A stretch of 64,000 nucleotides of DNA from a candidate division Hyd24-12 bacterium UBA5074 (GCA_002414865.1 DIAQ01000095.1:21430-85429), one strand, 5' to 3'. Positions 35,341-64,000 are shown, numbered from the stretch's first letter. Numbers and translations: made by a program. Notes: generated from the letters alone by a model not told the origin.

Positions 35341-37613
35341 CAGCCTTCCTCCGTCCCGCGGGGCGTTTCGTCCCTCTTCCCGTAGACTTCGCGGCGCTTG
35401 CCGCCCTGGAAGGGCCCTATCACGCCCTCCTCCTGGAGCAGCTCGATCAGCCTGGCGGCCCTCGGGTAGCCCAGCCCGAGCTTCTTCTGGAGGAAGGTCA
35501 CCGAGGCCGTCTTCGAGTTGATGACGAGATCCCTCGCCGTGTCGAGCAGCTCATCCGCTTTTACATCGCCGGCCTGCGGAGTGTTCCCCGGATCCCCCTC
35601 CCGGATGGAGAACCCGTGCTCCGTCTTCAGCGCCTGATCCTTCCAGAATTCGACGATGCTCCTGGCCTCGGAGGTGGACACGTTGGAGCCGTGGATCCTT
35701 ATCGGCTCGGATGAAGTGGCCTGGAGGAACAGCATGTCACCTCTCCCGAGCAGCTTCTCCGCTCCGTTGGCATCGAGGATGGTCCTGGAGTCCGTCTTCG
35801 ACATGACGTTGAAGGCTATCCTGGAAGGGAAGTTGGCCTTTATCACGCCCGTGATGACATCGACGGAGGGCCTCTGGGTGGCGACGACGAGATGGATGCC
35901 AACGGCCCTGGCCTTCTGGGCAAGCCTGCAGATCGGCAGCTCCACCTCGTTGCCGGAGGTCTGCATCAGGTCGTACAGCTCGTCGATGAACAGGACGATG
36001 TACGGCATGGGAACCGCATCGGGCGGCGGGGCGGTGTTGAACTCGTCGATGGTCCTCGCCCTCGCCTTCTCCAGAGTCCTGTAGCGGTTGTCCATCTCTA
36101 CGACGAGGGATTCCAGGAGCTGCCTGGCCTTCTTCGGATCGACGATGACGGGGGCCCAGAGGTGGGGCACGTCCTCGTAGATTGCCAGCTCGACCCTCTT
36201 CGGATCGACCAGGGCCAGCCTCACCTGCTCGGGCTTCCTCGTCATCAGGAGAGTGCAGATCATGCTGTGGATGCTGACGCTCTTGCCCGAGCCGGTGGCC
36301 CCGGCCACGAGCAGGTGCGGAGCCTCGGTGAGGTCGGTCACGAACGGCTCGCCTTCGAGCTTCTTGCCGAGGGCCAGGGGAAGCTTCACGCCCGGTGGCA
36401 CGGCCTGGAGGATCTCACTGAGGAAGACGGGCTCGGGGTTGGAATTGGGCACCTCCACCCCCACCGCATCCCTGCCCGGGATGGGCGCCAGGATGCGTAT
36501 CCTCTTGGCCTTGAGCGCAAGGGCGAGGTCGTCCGAGAGGCCGAGGATGCTGTTCACGCGGACGCCCTGGCCCGGCTTCAGCTCGAACCGGGTCAGCACG
36601 GGGCCGGCCCTGTGTCCGGTCACCCTGCACGAGACGCCGAAGTCGGCGAGCTTCTTCTCCAGAAGGGCTGCCTTCTCGAGCAGCTCGGACTCGGGCACGC
36701 CCCTGGGAGCACCCCTCGAGGGCGCCTCGAGCATGTCGAGCTTCGGCAGGGTCGCCCTGGAGGTGAACGCCTGTACCGCAGGCAGGCCCGCAGACAGAGC
36801 GCCCTCCGGGGACCCGGGGGCACGCACAGGCTCCTCTGCGCGCTCCTTCAGGGGCTCCCTCGCCGGCGCCGCCGACCTGGCTGGAAACCTGTCCGCGGAG
36901 TCCGCCGGGGGCAGAACAGGAGCGCTCCCCGCAATCTCCGGGAGAAGGTCCCTGTCGCTGTCGGCGAGACCCTGGATGATGATGGGCGGGGTATCCTGGC
37001 GCTCAGGCCTGTCCCAGGCATGGCGCTCCATGAAAGGCGGCGGCGCAGGAGGGGCCGGGGTCTCCCCGTCCCTCCCGGGCCTGGCCCTGGGCTTCGGAGC
37101 GGCGCTCTTCGCCGCCCTTCCCAGGAGGAGCAGATCATCCGCCAGGTCCCAGCCTGTGAAGATGACGAGCGCCGTTATGAGGCATGCGAGCAGGATGAGA
37201 TAAGCCACCAGGGATCCGGCGGACTTCTCGAGGAGCTCGACCGTGCTGTGCGCGAGCAGGCCGCCCGGTCTGCCGGCGATGGCGGGGTTGAAGCGGCTGC
37301 CGACCATGTCCGTGAGGGCGGCCAGGAAGTAGCCGGTCACGCCTGTCCCGAGGATGGTCGTGAAGCCTCCCCGGAGCGCTGACGCGCTGAGGGTCCTCAC
37401 GGCGCACATCAGAAGCAGTGCCGGGAGGAGGAAGGACAGGAATCCGGCGCTTCCATAGAGGGCCTGCCTCACCTGGGCCCCCACCCTGCCCCAGGGGGGC
37501 ACGACGAGGAGGACGAGCAGGGAGATCCCTGTGAAGATGCAGGCGACCACGACTATGCTGCGCAGGCTGCTGCGTCGGCGCCTGGCCCTGGACCTGCTCC
37601 GCGCGCGTGCCAT
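35340..37613 (-). CDS. ftsK: DNA translocase FtsK/SpoIIIE.
   Basis: N-terminal TM helices, a Pro/Ala-rich linker, the motor domain [19 protein letters not shown] and a C-terminal gamma (winged-helix) domain. ATG at 37613 overlaps the HU-gene TGA stop (ATGA). Confidence 0.9.
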   Translation of the reverse strand: MARARSRSRARRRRSSLRSIVVVACIFTGISLLVLLVVPPWGRVGAQVRQALYGSAGFLSFLLPALLLMCAVRTLSASALRGGFTTILGTGVTGYFLAALTDMVGSRFNPAIAGRPGGLLAHSTVELLEKSAGSLVAYLILLACLITALVIFTGWDLADDLLLLGRAAKSAAPKPRARPGRDGETPAPPAPPPFMERHAWDRPERQDTPPIIIQGLADSDRDLLPEIAGSAPVLPPADSADRFPARSAAPAREPLKERAEEPVRAPGSPEGALSAGLPAVQAFTSRATLPKLDMLEAPSRGAPRGVPESELLEKAALLEKKLADFGVSCRVTGHRAGPVLTRFELKPGQGVRVNSILGLSDDLALALKAKRIRILAPIPGRDAVGVEVPNSNPEPVFLSEILQAVPPGVKLPLALGKKLEGEPFVTDLTEAPHLLVAGATGSGKSVSIHSMICTLLMTRKPEQVRLALVDPKRVELAIYEDVPHLWAPVIVDPKKARQLLESLVVEMDNRYRTLEKARARTIDEFNTAPPPDAVPMPYIVLFIDELYDLMQTSGNEVELPICRLAQKARAVGIHLVVATQRPSVDVITGVIKANFPSRIAFNVMSKTDSRTILDANGAEKLLGRGDMLFLQATSSEPIRIHGSNVSTSEARSIVEFWKDQALKTEHGFSIREGDPGNTPQAGDVKADELLDTARDLVINSKTASVTFLQKKLGLGYPRAARLIELLQEEGVIGPFQGGKRREVYGKRDETPRGTEEG

Positions 37614-38143
37614 CAGACGGTCCTCACGGAATCCCCGCGGCCGTCGGAGGGGGTCCGCGGATCGCAGAGGAGCGCGCCGTCCACCCAGAACCTGTAGGAC
37701 ACTATGGCTCCGGCCGGGAGGGGCACCTCGGCAACCCAGCTGCCGTCCGGGAGTCGCTGCATGGGATTGGCGGAGGAGTCCCAGCCGTTGAAGCTGCCGA
37801 CGACCGATACTGCCGACGCTCCGGGAGCGCCTGCGTAGACGAACGGCACGCGTGTCATCCGGGACAGGGCCGAGCTCACGGATTCCCTCAGCCTGTCATA
37901 TGGCCTGAAGGAGGGGCGGACCTTCGGGGGGATCTCGATGATGCCGTCGCCCCTGGGATCGCGGGCCCGCCGGGAGCCCGCAGACCGGGCCTCGAAGCAG
38001 CCGAAGCCCCGGAGGTAGACCGATCCTCCCGAGCAGAGGACCTCGGAGATCACCGCGAGGGCGCTCTCCACGACAGCCTGCGCCTCTCTCCTCGTCACTC
38101 CGGTCCTGATGGCGACCTCGCGCGCCAGCTCATCCCTGGTCAG
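37613..38143 (-). CDS. HU/IHF-family DNA-binding domain fused to a C-terminal CBM48/AMPK-beta glycogen-binding-like domain. A CTG start is proposed.
   Basis: ORF track starts at GTG 38098 (VTRREAQAVVESALAVISEVLCSGGSVYLRGFGCFEARSAGSRRARDPRGDGIIEIPPKVRPSF = HU body). In-frame upstream codons encode DLTRDELAREVAIRTG (HU helix 1) preceded by TAG, with CTG at 38143-38141 and GGAGGT 6 nt upstream. C-terminal VPFVYAGAPGASAVSVVGSFNGWD...WVAEVPLPAGAIVSYRFWVDGALLCDP matches the CBM48 pattern. Confidence 0.65.
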   Translation of the reverse strand: MTRDELAREVAIRTGVTRREAQAVVESALAVISEVLCSGGSVYLRGFGCFEARSAGSRRARDPRGDGIIEIPPKVRPSFRPYDRLRESVSSALSRMTRVPFVYAGAPGASAVSVVGSFNGWDSSANPMQRLPDGSWVAEVPLPAGAIVSYRFWVDGALLCDPRTPSDGRGDSVRTV

Positions 38144-38209
38144 GTCGGCACCTCCAGTCTATCTCCCCATGCGAACGGTCATTGACGCTATGCTGCCCGT
38201 CTCCGCCTG

Positions 38210-39706
38210 TCAACTGCCGGCGACAGCCGCGGCTATGATGCCCAGGGCGCTGTCCCCCGGGCTCGATCCGGTCGTGTCCACGCGGCCGGGCAACCCTTCG
38301 TAATGTTCGCGCCGCTCCGCCAGAAGATCCAGGAGCGCACGGCGGTCGGAGGCGAGGGGTCTGCCTGCGGAAAGCCTCTCCAGCAGAGTGTCAGTCGATG
38401 CGGTGAGGGTCACCACGACAGCCTTCGAGAGCGCCAGCCCGAGGCTGTCCCCGTCCAGGAGGGTGCCGCCGCCCAGCGCCATCACTAGAGGGCCTCCCGC
38501 TTCCAGCGCCTCCGTGAGGCACTCCTTCTCCAGGGCTCTGAAGGCCGGCTCGCCCAGCTTCTCGAAGACTGAGGGGATCGGCATCCCCGCGCGCCGCTCG
38601 ACGGCCTCGTCCAGGTCGACGAAGGGCATCCCGAGTATCCTCGCGGCTTCAGCGCCCGCCGTCGTCTTCCCGCTGAACGGGGGGCCTGCGACGAGAATGG
38701 GCTTCGAGGAGGCCCTCTCCGAGAACTCCACGAGGCCTGCCGAGCGGATGACGGATCTGGCGTGCTCGAGGCTGACGAAGAACCTCCTGCTGTACAGCTC
38801 GTAGCTCTCGCGGACCGGCGGAGGGGTCATGTTGACCGTGATCACGTTGGCCCCTGCTTCGAAGCAGCCGAGCTGGCCTCCGGGTCTGAGTCTCTCGAAT
38901 GTGCTCGTGGCCGGGATGAGGGTGTTCCCGAGGAGGAGTCTCATGGCCGCCACGAAGCGGAGTCCGAGGTCCACGCTGCCGGGTGGCAGCGCCTCGAAAG
39001 GCGTGCCCCTCGCGGGCAGGAACACCGACACGCTGGTCATCTCCGCCCCCAGCTCCTCGAGGAGGCGCAGGTCCGCGACGAGGGTGGAGGGCGTCTGGCC
39101 CGGCAGCCCCAGCAGAGGGCCGGAACCGATCTCGTAGCCGTGCTCCCTCAGAGTCTTCAGCTCGGATATCCTGTCTTCGAGGCTCAGCCCGGGCTTCACC
39201 CTCGCGAAGAGCTCCGGATCGGCGCTCTCGTGCTTGAGGATGAATTTCGACGCTCCGGCATCCCTCCAGAGGTCGAGGTCCGAGGGATCGTGCACCCCGA
39301 CGCAGAGGAGGACGGCCATGTCCATCGAGGAGATCTCCCGCACGAGATCCGCCAGCCACGCCGCCGGGTAGTCCGGCGTCTCCGCCGACTGCAGGAAGAA
39401 GGTTCTTATGCCGTTGCCGCGGGCTGTGCGGGCTGCGGCGAGAATCTGCTCCCCCGTGAGCAGGAACCTCTCGACCTGCCGATTGTCCTTCCTCATGCCG
39501 CAGTAGTGGCAGTTGCACCGGCAGTTGTTGGAGAACTCGATCACGGCCCTGAGGTAGGCCCTCCGTCCGAACGACCCGGCCCGGACGCGGCGGGCGGCCT
39601 CGAAGACGCTCACGGTTTCCTCGTCGCTGCATTCGAGGATCGCGAGCAGGTCCCCGTCCGAGAAACCAGCTCCCAGCCTTTCATCGAGCCACTTCGCGTC
39701 TATCAT
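38210..39706 (-). CDS. Fusion protein: a HydE/BioB-like radical SAM domain joined to a C-terminal shikimate kinase (AroK) domain.
   Basis: N-terminal IEFSNNCRCNCHYCGMRKDN (CxxxCxxC, HydE/BioB-like) followed by a TIM-barrel radical SAM body. C-terminal ILVAGPPFSGKTTAGAEAARILGMPFVDLDEAVERRAGMPIPSVFEKLGEPAFRALE...ALGGGTLLD is shikimate kinase. ATGA overlap with the aroE stop. Confidence 0.8.
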   Translation of the reverse strand: MIDAKWLDERLGAGFSDGDLLAILECSDEETVSVFEAARRVRAGSFGRRAYLRAVIEFSNNCRCNCHYCGMRKDNRQVERFLLTGEQILAAARTARGNGIRTFFLQSAETPDYPAAWLADLVREISSMDMAVLLCVGVHDPSDLDLWRDAGASKFILKHESADPELFARVKPGLSLEDRISELKTLREHGYEIGSGPLLGLPGQTPSTLVADLRLLEELGAEMTSVSVFLPARGTPFEALPPGSVDLGLRFVAAMRLLLGNTLIPATSTFERLRPGGQLGCFEAGANVITVNMTPPPVRESYELYSRRFFVSLEHARSVIRSAGLVEFSERASSKPILVAGPPFSGKTTAGAEAARILGMPFVDLDEAVERRAGMPIPSVFEKLGEPAFRALEKECLTEALEAGGPLVMALGGGTLLDGDSLGLALSKAVVVTLTASTDTLLERLSAGRPLASDRRALLDLLAERREHYEGLPGRVDTTGSSPGDSALGIIAAAVAGS

Positions 39707-40491
39707 CTCCGCTCCCCTGCGCCGTCCAGCGCTGTGCGAAGGGCAGAATGCGGATCGGGCGGGAAGCCCGTCCAGATCCTGAAGGAGGCGGCTGCCTGGC
39801 CGGCCAGCATCAGCTCTCCCGTGTACACTCTGCAGCCGGATCGCCCGATGGCGTTCCTCCAGCTCCAGCCCGGATTGTAGTTGAGGTCCAGGAACGACTC
39901 GACGCCGGGCAGCCCGGCGGGGACCGGAAAGACATCGTCATCCGACCAGCCGAGCGTCGTGGCGTTGACCACGAGATCGAGGGAACCGGATTCCAGCCTC
40001 TCTCCGAGCGCGGAGAGCGGCGTTTCCCCCGGCGCGGGAGTCCGTGCGAACACCTCGCAGGGAATCCCGGCCTCACAGGCCGCAAGCCTCACCGCCCGCG
40101 CCGCTCCGCCGTTGCCGACTATCGCAGCCCCCCGGGGGCGCGGCATCGATGCCAGGGCGAGAGCGGCCCCCTCCACGTCCGTGTTGGAGCCGGCCCATCC
40201 CTGACCGGTTCTCGTCAGGGTGTTGACCGCCCCGAGCGCCAGGGACCTGTCGTCGAGCGACTCGCACACAACCGCGGCCCTGCTCTTGAGGGGGGCTGTC
40301 ACGTTCAGGCCTGCATACCCGTACCTGTGCAGGACCCACAGCGCGAGCACGAGGCTGCCCGGCTCGACTGGCAGGAGCTCGTAGCTCCCGCCGGAGCCCA
40401 TCTGTTCGAGGAACGCCCTGTGCAGGGCGGGCGAGAGCGAGGAACGCAGGGGCCAGCCGACGAGTCCCAGCTTCCACGGGTCATTCCCCAT
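39703..40491 (-). CDS. aroE: Shikimate dehydrogenase.
   Basis: LGLVGWPLRSSLSPALHRAF, GLNVTAPLK, VNTL and NTDVEGA motifs. Confidence 0.85.
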   Translation of the reverse strand: MGNDPWKLGLVGWPLRSSLSPALHRAFLEQMGSGGSYELLPVEPGSLVLALWVLHRYGYAGLNVTAPLKSRAAVVCESLDDRSLALGAVNTLTRTGQGWAGSNTDVEGAALALASMPRPRGAAIVGNGGAARAVRLAACEAGIPCEVFARTPAPGETPLSALGERLESGSLDLVVNATTLGWSDDDVFPVPAGLPGVESFLDLNYNPGWSWRNAIGRSGCRVYTGELMLAGQAAASFRIWTGFPPDPHSALRTALDGAGERR

Positions 40492-41716
40492 GGCGCCGGT
40501 CCCTCGCGGCCAGGAAGGCCCTGTGCAGCCACCTGGCCGCGCCGCGGGGCTCGAGGAAGACCGGGGCGAGGAAATCGGCTCCCGCGGGAGCGCGGCCGTC
40601 GCGCACCATGTCCTCGGCGATTCCGGAATGTGCGTAGACCCTTATCGTGCCTATGCTCACGAATGTGCTCCCCCATCCCAGGAGGAGCCTCGCCCTCAGC
40701 ATGAACAGGAGCTTGCCGACAAGGGCGGCGAAGCCCTCGCCCGGGTTGCCGCTGAAGAAGTTCACTCCCACGGCCAGCCCCGCCCGCCTCGCGGCGGCCA
40801 CCGAGGGATAGAGGTCGGAAGGTCTGCCGTTCTTGCCCAGCATCCTCAAACCCCTCGCGGTTATGGCGTCGGGCGACAGGTCCACCTTCACCGCCCCTGC
40901 AGCCTTCATCGCCGCCAGGTCGGCAGCCTCCACTCCCGTATCCAGCCAGGCGCCCCACTCCATGTGCGCCTCGAGCCGTGCGACGGCCCTGACCAGGGAC
41001 CTGAAATAGTCCCTGGGAGCGTCGAAGACCGAGTCCACGAACTGGAACCTTTCTACGCCCAGCCTGGCCAGGTTCTCCACATCCGCCGCGACGGCCTCCA
41101 CGGGGCGGCAGCGGAATGACCGGCCTCCCAGGAAGGAGTAGGTGCAGTACCGGCAGGAGAACGAGCACCCTCTCCTGCTCTGGACTCCCACGCCGAAGCC
41201 CCTCGCATAAGGCGCCAGGTCGAAGAGGGAGTAGGCGGGCGGGCGGATGGCCGTGAGATCCGGTCTCGGCGGAATGGTCAGCCGGGGCGGAGTGGAACCC
41301 GATCCCAGCGTCTCCAGGATGAACGGCAGCGCCTCCTCTCCCTCGCCGGCCACGCCGTAGTCTATCCTGGGGAAGGCCTTCATCAGCGTTTCCGGATAGA
41401 TCGAGAACCCGGGGCCTCCGACGACGACCGCTCCCCTGTAGCCGGAGAGGGCGGAGAGCGCCTCCCCGAAGGGGGCGAGATACGAATGGGTCCTCGGCCA
41501 CGAACTGTCGTCGATGTTCCTGAGGGAGATCGCGGTGACCTCGGGGGCGAACGATCCGACAGCGTCGGCGAGCTCCCTCCGCGGGTCGTCGCAGATACCC
41601 AGGTCGAGCACCCTGATCTCGTGCCCCTGCAGCTGCCCTGCGAGGCAGGCGAGCCCCAGGGGGAAGATGGGTTCCTCCCGCCTCCCGGTGGGTGATTGAA
41701 CGAGCAGCAGTTTCAT
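40481..41716 (-). CDS. B12-binding-domain radical SAM protein.
   Basis: N-terminal Rossmann-like B12-binding region (MKLLLVQSP...LGLACLAG) followed by radical SAM motif GCSFSCRYCTYS. The overlapping ORF 40305..41750 in another frame is R-rich and rejected. Confidence 0.8.
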   Translation of the reverse strand: MKLLLVQSPTGRREEPIFPLGLACLAGQLQGHEIRVLDLGICDDPRRELADAVGSFAPEVTAISLRNIDDSSWPRTHSYLAPFGEALSALSGYRGAVVVGGPGFSIYPETLMKAFPRIDYGVAGEGEEALPFILETLGSGSTPPRLTIPPRPDLTAIRPPAYSLFDLAPYARGFGVGVQSRRGCSFSCRYCTYSFLGGRSFRCRPVEAVAADVENLARLGVERFQFVDSVFDAPRDYFRSLVRAVARLEAHMEWGAWLDTGVEAADLAAMKAAGAVKVDLSPDAITARGLRMLGKNGRPSDLYPSVAAARRAGLAVGVNFFSGNPGEGFAALVGKLLFMLRARLLLGWGSTFVSIGTIRVYAHSGIAEDMVRDGRAPAGADFLAPVFLEPRGAARWLHRAFLAARDRRHGE

Positions 41717-41766: not shown

Positions 41767-42756
41767 ATGCTGTTTCCGCTGATCGTCGCGCTCTGCTCGC
41801 TGGCTGCCGGGGGCTGCGGGGGCGGCTCCCGGCTCCTGCCGTGGAGACAGCCATCCCTCGACGGCCTGGCCGCAGGGATATTGTCGGCGCGGACGATCCC
41901 CGAGTCGCCAGGGCTCCTCGTGATGGCCGCTTCGTGCGGATGGCCCGGCTCCATCGAGCTCGTCTCAACCGGCTCCCTGGAGGAACTCGAGGCACAGCTC
42001 GAAGCCTCTCCCGAGGGAACCTGCTGGGGCTCCTCCGGCGACGACTCCCTGGTCGTCCTGGTCACAGCCCCCTTCCCGGATGTGGTGCCCGAGGGGCTCG
42101 ACCTGGTGATCCCCCGCCACGGGTCGGCATCCTTCTCCCTCCTCCCTGCCGGTGGCTGCGACAGGGTTCTGGCCTCGTACCCTTCCGGCGAGGTGGTGGA
42201 ACTCGTCCCGGACTCTGCGGGCGTCCTCCACTTCCAGGCGAGGGAGCAGGGCCTCTCCTGGATCGAGGCGGTCAGAGACGGGCCCGAAGGCCCGGAGGTC
42301 GTCCTGCTGCTCCCGGTCTGCGCCGGGATCAGCGCATCCAGGGCTCTGGAGACAGGGCTCGCCCCCGGGATGGACACGCTCGAGGACATCCTCTCGGACA
42401 TCGGCGAGAGAAGGGGCCGAAGGCATCTGCAGCCTCTCGTGCGCACGGACCCGCTGGACAGTCTGGCCCTTGCAAGGGCCCGTGAGGTGGCCGAGTCCGG
42501 AGTGGTCAGCCATGCCGGTCTGCTGAGGCGGGAGGCTCCCGTCGACGGCCTCACGAGGGCGGAGAACATCGCCCGTGGAGGGAGCCTTGCCGAGGCCCAC
42601 GCGATGATCATGGCAAGCCCCATCCACCTGGCGGCATGCCTCGATCCTGAATACGGACAGGTGGGCATCGGCTCGGCCGTCCAGATAGGGCGTTACGGCT
42701 GGCAGATAGTCGTCGTGGAAATCTTCCTGGGAGCGGCGCATGATCGGTGTCCGTAG
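41767..42756 (+). CDS. Lipoprotein with a C-terminal CAP/SCP (PR-1/YkwD-like) domain.
   Basis: Lipobox MLFPLIVALCSLAAGGCGGGS (the ORF track starts at GTG 41692). C-terminal GLTRAENIARGGSLAEAHAMIMASPIHLAACLDPEYGQVGIGSAVQIGRYGWQIVVVEIF resembles the CAP domain. Confidence 0.65.
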   Translation: MLFPLIVALCSLAAGGCGGGSRLLPWRQPSLDGLAAGILSARTIPESPGLLVMAASCGWPGSIELVSTGSLEELEAQLEASPEGTCWGSSGDDSLVVLVTAPFPDVVPEGLDLVIPRHGSASFSLLPAGGCDRVLASYPSGEVVELVPDSAGVLHFQAREQGLSWIEAVRDGPEGPEVVLLLPVCAGISASRALETGLAPGMDTLEDILSDIGERRGRRHLQPLVRTDPLDSLALARAREVAESGVVSHAGLLRREAPVDGLTRAENIARGGSLAEAHAMIMASPIHLAACLDPEYGQVGIGSAVQIGRYGWQIVVVEIFLGAAHDRCP

Positions 42757-44371
42757 CGTGGCCCACGCCTCCGCGGCCGCTCTCCTGACGGTGGCGGGCG
42801 TCCTGCTGGTGGCTTCCTGCAAGAGCCCGGGCGCCGCCGCCGTCCTCTGCGCGTCGGCGCTGCTGGCCGGGGAGCTCCCCCTCAGGAATGACAGGGCCGT
42901 GCGGCTGACCCTCGCACCGGTGCCACTCGCGGCACTCGCCGGCGTCGCAGGGCCCCTGGAGGGCATGGCCGCAGGCATGCTCTTCCTGTCGGCTGGAGTT
43001 CTGCTCAGGGGCTTTCCAGGGAACACCGGATCCGGCTCTGCCAGAGCCGTCCTGTCCGTGATCGTGCCCTGCCTCCTCGCGGCTTCCCAGTCGGCGATGC
43101 ATCTCGGGGCCGGGCCCGGTCTCTCGGCTGCGGTCGCGTTCGTCCTCCTGGTGGCCGGATCTGGGATGCTGGACGCCATCCGGGGCGGGCGCCGCGCATG
43201 GGCCGGGTCGCTCCTGTGGATCCCGGCGGGGGTGCTGATGGCTCCTCTGCTCTACCTGACATGGCTGGGCGTCTCGCAGGCCGGCACGACAGGGGCCGCG
43301 CTGCTCTCCCTGCCGCTGTTCGCCTTCGCGGGCCTGTCCTCGTGGAGGCGGCGCAGCCTCGACCTCTACGAGAGGAAGACCTCCGAGCTCGCGGCCCAGA
43401 ACGCTCTCTCGGCAGAGCTCGCCTCCTCGAAATCCACGACCGAGTTCCTGGACACGGCAGGCAGGTACCTCTCGCCCGGCTCCAGATCGTTCGTGGTTCT
43501 CCTCACGAGACAGGCGGGGGGCGGGAGCGGCTGGGTGGGCTGGTCCAGTGCGGAGCAGAGGGCCTCGAACGCCTTCCCCGCCCAGGGCGGACCGCCGGGC
43601 TGGAACGAGATCAGGACCGGAGTCAGGCTCCAGGGGAGGTCCGGAGCGCTGATCGGACTTTCCCCGTCCAGGGACATGGCCCTGTTCGTGGACGGAGGCG
43701 CAGCCACCCGGCTGGAGGCCATGGAGCCCGACATAAGGGGTAACTTCGTCTCGCTCGTGAACCACGCATGGCAGGCGGTGGGACACTCCCTCACCATAGA
43801 CAGCGCCTTCATCGCGGCCGCGATGATACTCGCCCGGCTGGCCGATTCCAAGGACGACTACACGCATGGCCACTCGATCCGGGTCGCACGCCTCAGCTAC
43901 ATGCTGGGCGCTCGGATAGGCCTGTCCGTCCAGAAGCTCAAGACCCTCCGGGTGGGCGCGCTCCTGCACGACCTCGGGAAGGTCGCGGTCCCGGCGGAGA
44001 TACTGACCAAGCGCGGCCTTCTGACCAGGGAGGAGAGGACCGTCATCGAACGGCACCCCGTCGAGGGCGCCGAGATACTCGGCTCGCTCAGGGGGTATGA
44101 CGAGGTGAGGGAGATCGTCGGCAGCCACCACGAGAGGCTCGATGGCAAGGGATATCCGTCGGGGCTCTCCGGAAGGGGCATCCCGTTCCTGGCTCGGGTG
44201 GTCGCCGTTGCAGACACCTTCGATGCGATCACCTCCAGCAGGTCCTATCGCGCCGACGCAGACAGGCAGACGGCTCTGGAGGCGATCCGCGCAGGCAGCG
44301 GCACTCAGTTCGACTCGCGGGTCGTGGCCGCTCTCGAGAAGATGCTGGAGGACGGCGATGAAACCATCTGA
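42740..44371 (+). CDS. Membrane-bound HD-GYP domain protein (putative c-di-GMP phosphodiesterase).
   Basis: About 6 N-terminal TM helices. HD-GYP motifs HGHSIRVA, LHDLGKV, HHERLDGKGYPSGL. Confidence 0.85.
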   Translation: MIGVRSVAHASAAALLTVAGVLLVASCKSPGAAAVLCASALLAGELPLRNDRAVRLTLAPVPLAALAGVAGPLEGMAAGMLFLSAGVLLRGFPGNTGSGSARAVLSVIVPCLLAASQSAMHLGAGPGLSAAVAFVLLVAGSGMLDAIRGGRRAWAGSLLWIPAGVLMAPLLYLTWLGVSQAGTTGAALLSLPLFAFAGLSSWRRRSLDLYERKTSELAAQNALSAELASSKSTTEFLDTAGRYLSPGSRSFVVLLTRQAGGGSGWVGWSSAEQRASNAFPAQGGPPGWNEIRTGVRLQGRSGALIGLSPSRDMALFVDGGAATRLEAMEPDIRGNFVSLVNHAWQAVGHSLTIDSAFIAAAMILARLADSKDDYTHGHSIRVARLSYMLGARIGLSVQKLKTLRVGALLHDLGKVAVPAEILTKRGLLTREERTVIERHPVEGAEILGSLRGYDEVREIVGSHHERLDGKGYPSGLSGRGIPFLARVVAVADTFDAITSSRSYRADADRQTALEAIRAGSGTQFDSRVVAALEKMLEDGDETI

Positions 44372-45929
44372 ACCCGCCCGCACAGGCCCCGCGGCCTTCC
44401 AGCTCCTCGTCTGGATCCTCGCGGCGGTCTCCGTGCCGGACTCCCCGGCCCCCTCCTCCTCCATCGAGTCCCTGACACTGATGATCGCCACCTGGGTCGG
44501 CGTCCTGGGGGCCACCGCCTTCAGCTACCTCTCCTCCAGCGGCATCTCTGTGTCCCTCGTCACCTGCTTCCAGTGCCTGCTGGTGATGACGGGCTTCGAC
44601 AGGGCTTCCGAGGCCGCGTTCCTGATCGCCTGCTTCCTCGGGACGATGTCGTTCTCGGGGAGGATAGGGCTGGGGGCGCGTGACGGCGCCGGCCTCTCCC
44701 TGAGAGCGGCGCTCACCCAGTGGGCTGCTCTGAGGATCGCAGGATTCGTCTATGCGGTAACGATTCCGGCAGGCCTCTCCGGCACGCTTCCCGGAGCTGC
44801 AGCCTGCTCTGTCTTCGCAATCGTGCTGCTCCAGGCTTCAGCGCTGGTCCTTCGCTCGATCGGAGGGCGCGGGAGGCTGCTGAGGACGGAGTTCAGCTTC
44901 GCGAGGCTGATGCACGGAGTCGCTCTGCCGGTCTTCTTCATGCCTTTCCTTCTGCCGGCGGTGACCGGGGCGGTCGGACCGGGCGCGGCGCGCGGAGACG
45001 TCTCCCTCCTGCTCCCTGCCGGCGTGGCGTCGATGATCACCGTGCAGGTCGCCATGGCGCTCAGCCTGGAGAGGTCCAAATGGTCTCAGGGCAGGGCGCT
45101 CTCGCTGGAGAAGGCCATGGCCGCGCTCTCCCGCAGGCTGGTCTCCTCGAAGAACCCTGCGGCGGCGCTCCAGAGCCTGGCCGTGGAGCTGCAGGAGGCC
45201 ATCAGGTCGAGGGCCATCAGGGTCACCTGGGGCAACCTCTCGATGGCCCTGCCGTCGGGCTCCCCCCTGCCGCGGGGCAAGCCCCTGCGCCGGACGGGAA
45301 GGGCGGGCCTGCAGGCGGAGATATGGGCCGACCCGGCCACAGTGCTCGATCCTGCGCGGCTCGACGCCTTCGTCCTCCAGACGGAGGCCGCCCTTCAGAG
45401 CATCGAGCTGGGGAGCAGCATCAGCAGGGAGGCGTGGAACTGCATGGAGGCGATGGTGCAGTCCCTCGACCGCTCCGACCACCGGCTCGCAGGCCACAGC
45501 AAGCGCGTGGCCAGGCTGGCGACCGAGCTGGGCCGCCGGCTGAACCTCCAGCCGGGACTGCTGGACAGCCTCCGCATGTCCTCGCTCCTGCACCACGTGG
45601 CGCAGTTCGTCCTCACCTCACGCCCCTACGAGGACCTGCCGGATGCGGACAGCTCGCTCTCGCGCTTCGCGCTTCCCGGAGAGGCCATCGAGGGTCTCAC
45701 GAGGATGAGGGAGAACTTCGACGGTACCGGGCTGCCGGATGGCCTGGCGGGCAACATCATCCCGATTCAGGCCAGGATACTCTCGGTGTCCGACGAGTTC
45801 ATCACGGGCGTGGAGAGGATGGGCGGGGATGCGGCGATGACCGCCGTCTCGCAGCGTTCGGGCAGCCTGTACGACCCCGCCATAGTCCAGGTCCTCTCCG
45901 CCACCCTGGAGGACGGCTTCGAGGCCTGA
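44358..45929 (+). CDS. Membrane-bound HD-GYP-like protein with degenerate catalytic motifs (possibly non-catalytic).
   Basis: ATG at 44358 overlaps the 3' end of the upstream gene. About 8 TM helices. AGHSKRVARLATELG is retained, but HD becomes LHHVAQF and HHExxDGxGYP becomes RENFDGTGLPDG. Confidence 0.7.
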   Translation: MKPSEPARTGPAAFQLLVWILAAVSVPDSPAPSSSIESLTLMIATWVGVLGATAFSYLSSSGISVSLVTCFQCLLVMTGFDRASEAAFLIACFLGTMSFSGRIGLGARDGAGLSLRAALTQWAALRIAGFVYAVTIPAGLSGTLPGAAACSVFAIVLLQASALVLRSIGGRGRLLRTEFSFARLMHGVALPVFFMPFLLPAVTGAVGPGAARGDVSLLLPAGVASMITVQVAMALSLERSKWSQGRALSLEKAMAALSRRLVSSKNPAAALQSLAVELQEAIRSRAIRVTWGNLSMALPSGSPLPRGKPLRRTGRAGLQAEIWADPATVLDPARLDAFVLQTEAALQSIELGSSISREAWNCMEAMVQSLDRSDHRLAGHSKRVARLATELGRRLNLQPGLLDSLRMSSLLHHVAQFVLTSRPYEDLPDADSSLSRFALPGEAIEGLTRMRENFDGTGLPDGLAGNIIPIQARILSVSDEFITGVERMGGDAAMTAVSQRSGSLYDPAIVQVLSATLEDGFEA

Positions 45930-63642: not shown

Positions 63643-64000
63643 GGCGCAGGGTCGGACTGTAAGCCGGGTTCTGTATCGCCTCGCGGCGACGGCGGCCATT
63701 CGTCTGGGATCCCGGTCGCCCGGGACCTCTAGCGGCCTACCCGGAGGTGGTTGGGGGAGCGGGCAGCTCCCCGTCCGGCCGGAGCCGGACTCCCTCCCTA
63801 TTGGGCCTTGCACCGGGCGAGGTTTGCCGTGCGGATCCGGTTGCCCGGATCCCGGTGGGCTCTTGCCCCACCTTTTCACCCTTGCCCGCACTGGGCGGGC
63901 GGTTTCTTTTCTGTGGCACTTTCCTGCCGTTGCCGGCACCGGGTGTTGCCCGGCGCCCTGCCCTGCGGTGCCCGGACTTTCCTCCCGCCTGCGGCGGGCG
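63643..64000 (-). ncRNA. rnpB: RNase P RNA (bacterial type A), 5' end truncated by the window edge.
   Basis: The minus strand carries GGGAGGAAAGTCCGGGC (P4 5' strand) at 63975-63991, GGGTGAAAAGGTGGGGCAAGAGCCCACC, GGCAAACCTCGCCCGGTGCAAGGCCCAATAGGGAGGG, and 3' ACAGAACCCGGCTTACAG. The 3' end lies about 12 nt from the recJ start. Confidence 0.85.

Follow-up and report, generated by a model that had tools for sequence, protein, structure and literature searches.

[FeFe] hydrogenases need HydE, a maturase built from a radical S-adenosylmethionine (SAM) TIM barrel and a BATS domain. In the HydE family, as among the enzymes of the shikimate pathway, neighbouring genes have been merged into one polypeptide. 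Algal HydEF is a fusion of this adjacent-gene type, and HydE-HydG proteins also occur. Shikimate kinase is part of AroK-AroB proteins (NF010556/NF010627) and of the AROM polypeptide, and in fusions of this type it tolerates N-terminal as well as C-terminal partners. These known examples (HydE-HydG, HydEF, AroK-AroB, AROM) unite enzymes of a single pathway and are conserved in many species. Here we describe a protein which resembles them in being a merger of neighbours, but which combines a HydE-like radical SAM protein with shikimate kinase (AroK) and is restricted to a single lineage. It is encoded on a stretch of 64,000 nt from the candidate division Hyd24-12 bacterium UBA5074 (GCA_002414865.1, DIAQ01000095.1:21430-85429), which is referred to as the window.

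In the original prediction the fusion was taken as a sign that a shikimate kinase and the adjacent shikimate dehydrogenase (aroE) are coupled to two radical SAM enzymes in an uncharacterised modification or branch of shikimate metabolism. We arrive at a different reading, which we hold with somewhat more confidence than doubt: a recent in-frame fusion, found in one near-clonal lineage, joins an ordinary and independent AroK to a non-canonical HydE-like radical SAM protein. The covalent link is recent and probably incidental, because none of 65 other species-representative loci carries a fusion, because aroK is mostly inverted or not adjacent to the radical SAM gene, and because in relatives the two genes overlap or are split by a stop codon.

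Domain structure and reality of the fusion

The fused open reading frame (ORF), its position and length, and the two sequence motifs quoted in the original prediction were found exactly as described there. Pfam assigns Radical_SAM (residues 56-216, 58.7 bits), BATS (residues 225-293) and SKI (residues 345-484, 99.2 bits), the three domains for which a search had been proposed. The stretch which carries the radical SAM motif, residues 56-75, reads IEFSNNCRCNCHYCGMRKDN. The start of the fusion overlaps the aroE stop codon by 4 nt (ATGA, 39703-39706), and aroE overlaps the preceding gene, which codes for a B12-binding radical SAM protein (B12-rSAM), by 11 nt. Both overlaps had been noticed before, and they fit translational coupling.

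A sequencing or assembly error, either a frameshift or a lost stop codon, might let two genes appear as one, and in relatives a single small indel or point mutation at the two-gene junction would indeed be enough to create a fusion. However, the 498-residue protein (P0121) or one of its single-residue variants (P0001, P0123) is encoded on at least 20 contigs, which represent at least 11 samples, were produced with several assemblers and come from NCBI (metagenome-assembled genome (MAG) GCA_002430795.1), JGI and Logan. Three haplotypes exist, the reading frame is continuous across all copies, and the junction differs from that of relatives by a replacement of several nucleotides, not by a homopolymer slip. 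As the same ORF is obtained from so many samples and assemblers, an assembly error was rejected; we attach next to no probability to it, and the proposed check for a frameshift between two separate genes has come out in favour of a single gene.

Among 12 copies of the fusion gene only 3 of 1497 nt vary, and the surrounding 21 kb are 99.99% identical between samples. The copies thus represent one near-clonal population and not independent lineages. Three variable sites in the fused ORF are too few to ask whether selection maintains the fusion. A homologue search gave 273 matches. The 119 relatives listed besides the fusion proteins have about 335 residues, lack SKI and show 59-74% identity; among the matches listed, the combination of Radical_SAM and SKI is confined to P0001, P0121 and P0123. 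The original prediction knew of no described fusion between a radical SAM protein and AroK, and no second protein of this kind is among the matches listed.

The host phylum is Candidatus Fermentibacteria (Hyd24-12), and all named homologues are from Fermentibacter, Aegiribacteria or Sabulitectum. We made a census of 65 species-representative loci from this phylum, in 7 of which there is too little flanking sequence to place aroK. The underlying scan of the genome collection used clade-specific patterns and so returned Fermentibacteria only; contexts outside the phylum stem from later searches. The HydE-like gene is present in all 65 species. Relative to it, aroK is fused in none, located on the same strand in 6, convergent on the opposite strand in 29 and absent from the flank in 23. 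Beside the gene trio formed by B12-rSAM, aroE and the HydE-like gene, aroK is thus inverted or missing in 52 of the 58 informative species. The fusion does not recur in independent lineages. As the adjacency of AroK and the radical SAM protein is not conserved, the fusion is weak evidence for a shared pathway.

Origin of the junction

Close relatives show from which arrangement the fusion arose. In four of these (L001, L004, L017, L040) aroK is a separate gene, which starts 8 nt inside the radical SAM gene and is read in another frame (ATGnnTGA-type). In two others (L054, L068) both genes share the frame, with one in-frame stop codon in between. The gene order in L001 and L004 is B12-rSAM, aroE, radical SAM gene, aroK, HU-CBM, FtsK, LolA, RimO. 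In the window, the junction is about 22 nt (net) shorter than in L001, and stop and start codon have both been lost. Alternative in-frame starts from which a separate AroK could be made are limited to a GTG at codon 326 and an ATT at codon 337, neither of which is preceded by a clear Shine-Dalgarno sequence.

By comparison with these relatives, collapse of the junction is identified as the step by which the fusion arose. In the ancestor, as in the closest relatives of today, either the HydE-like gene reached 8 nt into aroK or one in-frame stop codon stood between the two genes. A small net deletion or a replacement, amounting to about 22 nt, then erased stop and start at the junction, and the frames were joined via a 10-residue linker. 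Taken alone, the fusion is of little weight. It illustrates that overlapping stop/start junctions in compact operons may turn into fusion proteins, and it cautions against reading function from a fusion that occurs in a single lineage. The claim that the fusion signals biochemical coupling to shikimate kinase is not supported: the fusion occurs in a single near-clonal lineage only and arose from genes which already overlapped or were split by a stop codon.

An inverted aroK is found in L083 (10001-11495) and in 28 similar loci of Sabulitectum type, where it shares a convergent 3′ overlap of about 50 nt with the HydE-like gene. As the 3′ end of the HydE-like gene is overlapped by an inverted aroK in 29 loci, the junction between the two genes has been rearranged repeatedly.

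Shikimate kinase and shikimate dehydrogenase

The AroK half had been described as complete, and this holds: the P-loop GPPFSGKTT and all canonical catalytic residues are present. The SKI match far exceeds the Pfam cutoff of 22.1 bits and covers profile positions 3-148 of 159. The NCBIfam equivalog cutoff is missed (84 versus 217 bits), as is usual in a divergent phylum. Among solved structures, its best relatives are without exception shikimate kinases. Walker A, DxD, FR, GGG, the LID Arg and R..HY do not vary across 48 distinct orthologues. The situation is similar for the upstream aroE. Its product stays below the TIGR00507 cutoff (135 versus 200 bits), and its best solved relative is AroE from T. 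thermophilus. No variation was seen in SxS, K, N, NTD, Y and Q among 78 distinct orthologues, including one from a locus outside the phylum's synteny block (L121); the catalytic Lys/Asp and the Gly-rich NADP loop are also present. Residue changes that hint at a new substrate were found neither in the 78 AroE nor in the 48 AroK sequences.

As catalytic and substrate-binding residues are fully conserved, the C-terminal half is predicted to be an ordinary ATP-dependent shikimate kinase and the aroE product an ordinary NADP-type shikimate dehydrogenase. The two halves of the fusion most likely act independently, and the covalent link would add at most equal stoichiometry.

Affiliation of the radical SAM half

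The assignment of the radical SAM half to the HydE/PylB/BioB subgroup was confirmed and could be narrowed to the HydE family. The NCBIfam score is highest for HydE (TIGR03956, 238.4 bits; cutoff 254.6), followed by PylB (150.3; cutoff 348) and BioB (82.6; cutoff 225), and is far lower for MqnC (40; cutoff 428) and MqnE (39; cutoff 435), so that none of the cutoffs is reached. The best solved relative is HydE from Thermotoga maritima (TmHydE, PDB 3CIW/7O1O), to which the radical SAM half aligns without gaps over 287 residues (226 bits, about 41% identity). Based on these scores and on the matches to solved structures, BioB, PylB, MqnC/E and HmdB were rejected as identities.

The protein has the HydE-type barrel/BATS architecture and the CxxxCxxC motif, and the gapless alignment extends to PDB 7O1O/3CIX. 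For comparison we used a panel of 150 representatives from an exhaustive search of 50%-identity representatives, in which the whole Fermentibacteria clade is a single entry and the next relatives show 38-44% identity. The three cysteines C62, C66 and C69 are invariant throughout this panel. The C-terminal cysteine triad for an auxiliary cluster is absent from the window protein.

Two conserved methionines of TmHydE, M224 and M291, are implicated in handling the Fe(CO)2CN species, and M291 is described as functional (PMC10114646). The first is kept as M223 in 13 of 13 clade members. The second is replaced by Thr (T290), again in 13 of 13; in the panel this column has 72% Met and 21% Thr. The clade also carries the substitutions G108A and P228V, at positions with 99% and 93% conservation across the panel.

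By their signature residues, two groups can be distinguished in the panel. The M290 group carries S135, R154, M290 and P291, as does TmHydE, scores 280-394 bits against TIGR03956 (n=12) and includes three proteins fused to HydG. The T290 group is characterized by C135, T290 and V/I291, scores 216-273 bits (n=12) and has members fused to an adenylation domain or to a HemN-like radical SAM domain. In the Fermentibacteria clade the corresponding residues are C135, K154, F282, T290, V291 and M293, the scores are 223-240 bits (n=7, including 226 bits for the HydE-like protein of L121), and AroK is the fusion partner in one lineage. All six residues are shared with the T290 group, which has V or I at position 291. 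All seven clade members tested are below the cutoff, as is common in the T290 group, and at least 40 bits below every representative of the M290 group. Neighbour-joining with 100 bootstrap replicates recovers a monophyletic clade in all 100, and its sister is from the T290 group in 96 and from the M290 group in none.

The clade differs from the T290 group by the unique residues A108, V228 and T269, and by having aroE as neighbour instead of an acyl-CoA ligase gene. Hidden Markov models of the two subgroups prefer T290 for the clade by only 16-31 bits, while true members differ by 60-100 bits, and the clade is thus considered a deep branch of its own.

A further difference from canonical HydE concerns the neighbourhood. 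No strong hydG match was found in the flanks of about 90 Fermentibacteria loci (about 6-10 kb, as far as the contigs reach; hydF was not searched there). As an internal control, hydG is located within 3 kb in four of four TmHydE-like loci from the metagenome scan. Also, the HydE-like gene is present in all species of the census, whereas hndD, the gene for the catalytic subunit of [FeFe] hydrogenase, is missing from 5 of 19 Fermentibacterota MAGs. We take the N-terminal half to be a HydE-family enzyme which cleaves SAM with a [4Fe-4S] cluster, and lean modestly towards the view that it is not an [FeFe]-hydrogenase maturase.

A competing explanation, which we regard as less probable but as a serious contender, is that this protein is the genuine though divergent HydE maturase of the phylum. 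The fusion with AroK would then be an accident, and the four genes of the locus would be housekeeping genes without relation to each other, which stay together through inherited synteny. Several observations speak for it and weigh against the reading that we favour. Among the families, HydE matches best by a wide margin, the alignment with TmHydE is gapless at about 41% identity, and M224 is retained together with most cavity residues and most residues conserved family-wide. Several members of the clade are called HydE in NCBI records. Fermentibacteria are H2-producing fermenters, and KEGG-based orthology tables list hndD for 14 of 19 Fermentibacterota MAGs, with two copies in the fusion-bearing GCA_002430795.1, in a table which has no columns for hydE/F/G or aro genes (PMC10116835). 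Hydrogenases of Fermentibacteria are also named in Kirkegaard 2016 and Saad 2017, where their type is not stated. The synteny reaches plainly unrelated genes (HD-GYP, CAP-like, HU, FtsK). Finally, the preference for the T290 group is small, and the neighbour-joining tree may be affected by long-branch attraction. Against a maturase stand the low scores, the exchange of M291 for Thr, the shared signature residues, the sister position, the lack of a strong hydG match in the flanks and the presence of the gene in all species.

Genomic contexts of the T290 group

Our reading of the radical SAM half as non-canonical draws on the proteins of the T290 group (for example P0244/P0395, P0425 from Gloeomargarita and the paralogue P0408 from Clostridium beijerinckii). 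These are found in cyanobacteria (Gloeomargarita, Pleurocapsa, Desmonostoc), C. beijerinckii, Methylococcales and others, and most are named 'radical SAM protein'. We know of no [FeFe] hydrogenases in cyanobacteria, and to our knowledge no characterisation of this subgroup has been published. As the TIGR03956 cutoff falls inside the score range of the group, its members are named either 'HydE' or 'radical SAM protein'. This naming split is seen within cyanobacteria, where the Pleurocapsa record says 'HydE' and the Gloeomargarita record 'radical SAM' (P0417, P0425).

The closest HydE-like homologue from outside the phylum (44% identity) is encoded in L088. There it is followed by an acyl-CoA ligase gene, two genes for 2-oxoacid_dh-type acyltransferases and a BzaD-like B12-rSAM gene. 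The latter is 2.5 kb away from the HydE-like gene, and its product is 33% identical to the window B12-rSAM over the full length. A ligase/acyltransferase context beside a HydE-like gene is seen again in L090 and L091. In C. beijerinckii the HydE-like gene closes a cluster of genes for a radical SAM protein, an AMP-binding protein, an acyl carrier protein, a SPASM-type radical SAM protein and two B12-rSAMs. This uncharacterised cluster (L089, 89-12620), in which the AMP-binding protein is a ligase, also comprises two ABC exporters.

By phylogeny, scores and gene contexts, the HydE-like enzyme of Fermentibacteria would perform radical chemistry on a small molecule, possibly together with the B12-rSAM encoded two genes upstream. 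Within the HydE family, the HydG-associated proteins are cleanly separated from a second group with scores at or below the cutoff, which lacks Met291 and occurs in cyanobacteria and in biosynthetic clusters.

HydE-family proteins fuse readily. The three HydE-HydG fusions (P0252, P0284, P0310) belong to the canonical group. Two fusions are from the T290 group (P0269, P0280), one of which carries an adenylation/acyl-CoA-ligase domain and the other a HemN-like radical SAM domain.

The B12-binding radical SAM gene

The two best families for the B12-rSAM are TIGR04072 ('lipid biosynthesis B12-binding/radical SAM protein') with 207.5 bits and BzaD (TIGR04385), a methyltransferase for the lower ligand of B12, with 162.4 bits. 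They share its domain order, but the scores are far below the cutoffs of 360 and 450 bits, and neither bza nor lipid-synthesis genes are nearby. In the clade which contains the window protein, all members down to 46% identity are from Fermentibacteria. The relatives that follow, at 32-37% identity, have genes for lipid A acyltransferases, a heptosyltransferase and additional B12-rSAM paralogues as neighbours. The closest outside relatives thus adjoin lipid A acyltransferase genes or, as in L088, a cluster of HydE-like and acyl-CoA ligase genes, and these contexts also argue against coupling to shikimate kinase.

In L084 (3395-11103), four tandem B12-binding radical SAM genes are flanked by two genes of the lipid A acyltransferase family and by a gene for a GT9 heptosyltransferase. 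This cluster could be involved in radical modification of lipid A acyl chains.

Conservation of the gene trio and its possible meaning

While aroK is variable in position, the B12-rSAM gene and aroE are found directly upstream of the HydE-like gene in all 55 loci with enough sequence. Outside the phylum, proximity of B12-rSAM and HydE-like genes recurs once (L088), and the pair of aroE and HydE-like gene also recurs once. The latter is found in L121 (15.9 kb, 44-59% GC), where a canonical aroE runs into the start of a HydE-like gene whose product is 51% identical to that of the window. The flank of L121 consists of genes for glycosyltransferases, DUF3800 and cNMP-binding proteins, and an acyl-CoA ligase gene is divergent beside the pair. 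As these flanking genes are unrelated to those in Fermentibacteria, the pair persists outside the synteny block of the phylum. Within the phylum, inherited synteny may suffice to explain the unit of B12-rSAM, aroE and HydE-like gene, because unrelated flanking genes (HD-GYP, CAP-like, HU, FtsK) are syntenic in other Fermentibacteria loci too.

In the original prediction, taken further, B12-rSAM, AroE, the HydE-like enzyme and AroK would be partners in a pathway which diverts shikimate or 3-dehydroshikimate, with the fusion as its 'Rosetta stone'. We consider this unlikely. It is favoured by the invariance of the trio with its overlapping stops and starts, by the typical occurrence of the HydE-like subgroup in biosynthetic clusters for small molecules and by the existence of the fusion itself. 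The points in its favour that count against an incidental fusion are the following. Fusions often join functionally related proteins. The overlapping aroE-HydE-like pair is kept in L121 despite a different context and GC content, with an acyl-CoA ligase gene adjoining. In addition, the amino acids which Hyd24-12 bacteria can make according to a prediction from their genomes are limited to Gly, Ser, Cys, Thr, Asn, Asp, Glu and Gln (Kirkegaard et al. 2016); this prediction, in which F. daniensis is included, is an automated annotation of three MAGs. If aromatic amino acids are not made, aroE and aroK would be without their usual role. We found no literature that links Fermentibacteria with shikimate.

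Against this stand the position of aroK, which is inverted or absent beside the trio in nearly all informative species, the restriction of the fusion to one near-clonal lineage, and the lack of residue changes in AroE and AroK that would suggest a new substrate. No aro genes lie close to the outside relatives of the HydE-like gene and of the B12-rSAM gene. Overlap makes a gene pair resist separation regardless of its function, and L121 is a single case which may stem from a relative of the phylum.

Of the proposed branch of shikimate metabolism, the link to AroK is not supported. The HydE-like enzyme may be linked to aroE, given the invariant trio and the pair in L121. There is a small chance that B12-rSAM, AroE and the HydE-like enzyme, with AroK beside them in some lineages and fused in the present one, provide a dedicated route which leads from shikimate, 3-dehydroshikimate or its phosphate to a non-aromatic product in two radical SAM steps. 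If this were true, the HydE-like enzyme would be the first representative of a non-hydrogenase HydE subgroup for which a class of substrates can be identified. Throughout the phylum, a HydE-like gene, apparently of the second group, is always found beside aroE and a B12-rSAM gene; should this arrangement reflect function, it would point to a new branch of shikimate metabolism by radical chemistry and provide a handle on a substrate of HydE-like enzymes.

Features of the locus and its surroundings

The features of the locus are listed in Table 1.

Table 1 Features of the fusion locus and adjacent genes. Positions are counted from the first nucleotide of the window.
Feature	Position	Strand	Remarks
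B12-binding radical SAM gene (BzaD-like / 'lipid biosynthesis B12-rSAM'-like)	40481-41716	minus	411 aa; Pfam B12-binding and Radical_SAM
aroE, shikimate dehydrogenase	39703-40491	minus	262 aa; Pfam Shikimate_dh_N and SDH_C
Fused ORF (radical SAM-SKI)	38210-39706	minus	498 aa
HydE-like radical SAM/BATS part, residues 1-325	38732-39706	minus	TIGR03956 match; alignment with T. maritima HydE
CxxxCxxC motif for the [4Fe-4S]/SAM cluster, C62/C66/C69	39500-39523	minus	
Junction/linker VEFSERASSK, residues 326-335	38702-38731	minus	located where relatives have the stop/start overlap
Shikimate kinase (AroK) domain, residues 336-498 and stop codon	38210-38701	minus	Pfam SKI
P-loop GPPFSGKTT, residues 341-349	38660-38686	minus	
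HU-like DNA-binding domain and CBM48 module gene	37613-38098	minus	next gene downstream; context only
CAP-like gene, divergent	41767-42756	plus	weak CAP match; gene calls of L007/L082 mapped onto the window

The window has a GC content of about 67%. Its genes are a mixed housekeeping set (GGDEF, MFS, PepF, FtsEX, PpiC, Mfd, M23, Upp, an aminoacyl-tRNA synthetase, DapA, Band 7, a PilT-like ATPase, BamD, RimO, LolA, FtsK, HU-CBM, HD-GYP, DprA, RecJ), and among its about 45 annotated ORFs there are neither hyd genes nor further aro genes. The cluster described here heads a long string of co-directional genes. A gap of about 50 nt, which is probably the start of this string, separates the start of the B12-rSAM gene from the divergent CAP-like gene. 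Scans of the cluster for promoters and terminators and with Rfam gave nothing informative.

The CAP-like gene codes for a secreted protein, and downstream of it stand two HD-GYP (HD_5) genes in tandem (together 41767-45929, plus strand). This gene order is syntenic in all three Fermentibacteria groups.

The gene downstream of the fusion joins an HU/IHF-like domain to a CBM48/AMPK-type glycogen-binding module. It is kept across the phylum, and its position is syntenic in Fermentibacter- and Sabulitectum-type genomes. In the window (37613-38161, minus strand), the Pfam HU match begins only at profile position 16. The in-frame codons upstream of the gene call read ...LTRDELAREVAIRTG, which is a typical HU N-terminus, but there is no ATG, GTG or TTG ahead of the upstream stop codon at 38159-38161. 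As the HU N-terminus extends upstream without one of these codons, the gene probably has a non-canonical start, perhaps CTG at 38141-38143.

At the end of the window (63644-64000, minus strand), a bacterial RNase P RNA of class A was detected with 228 bits, the 5′ end of which is lost at the window edge.

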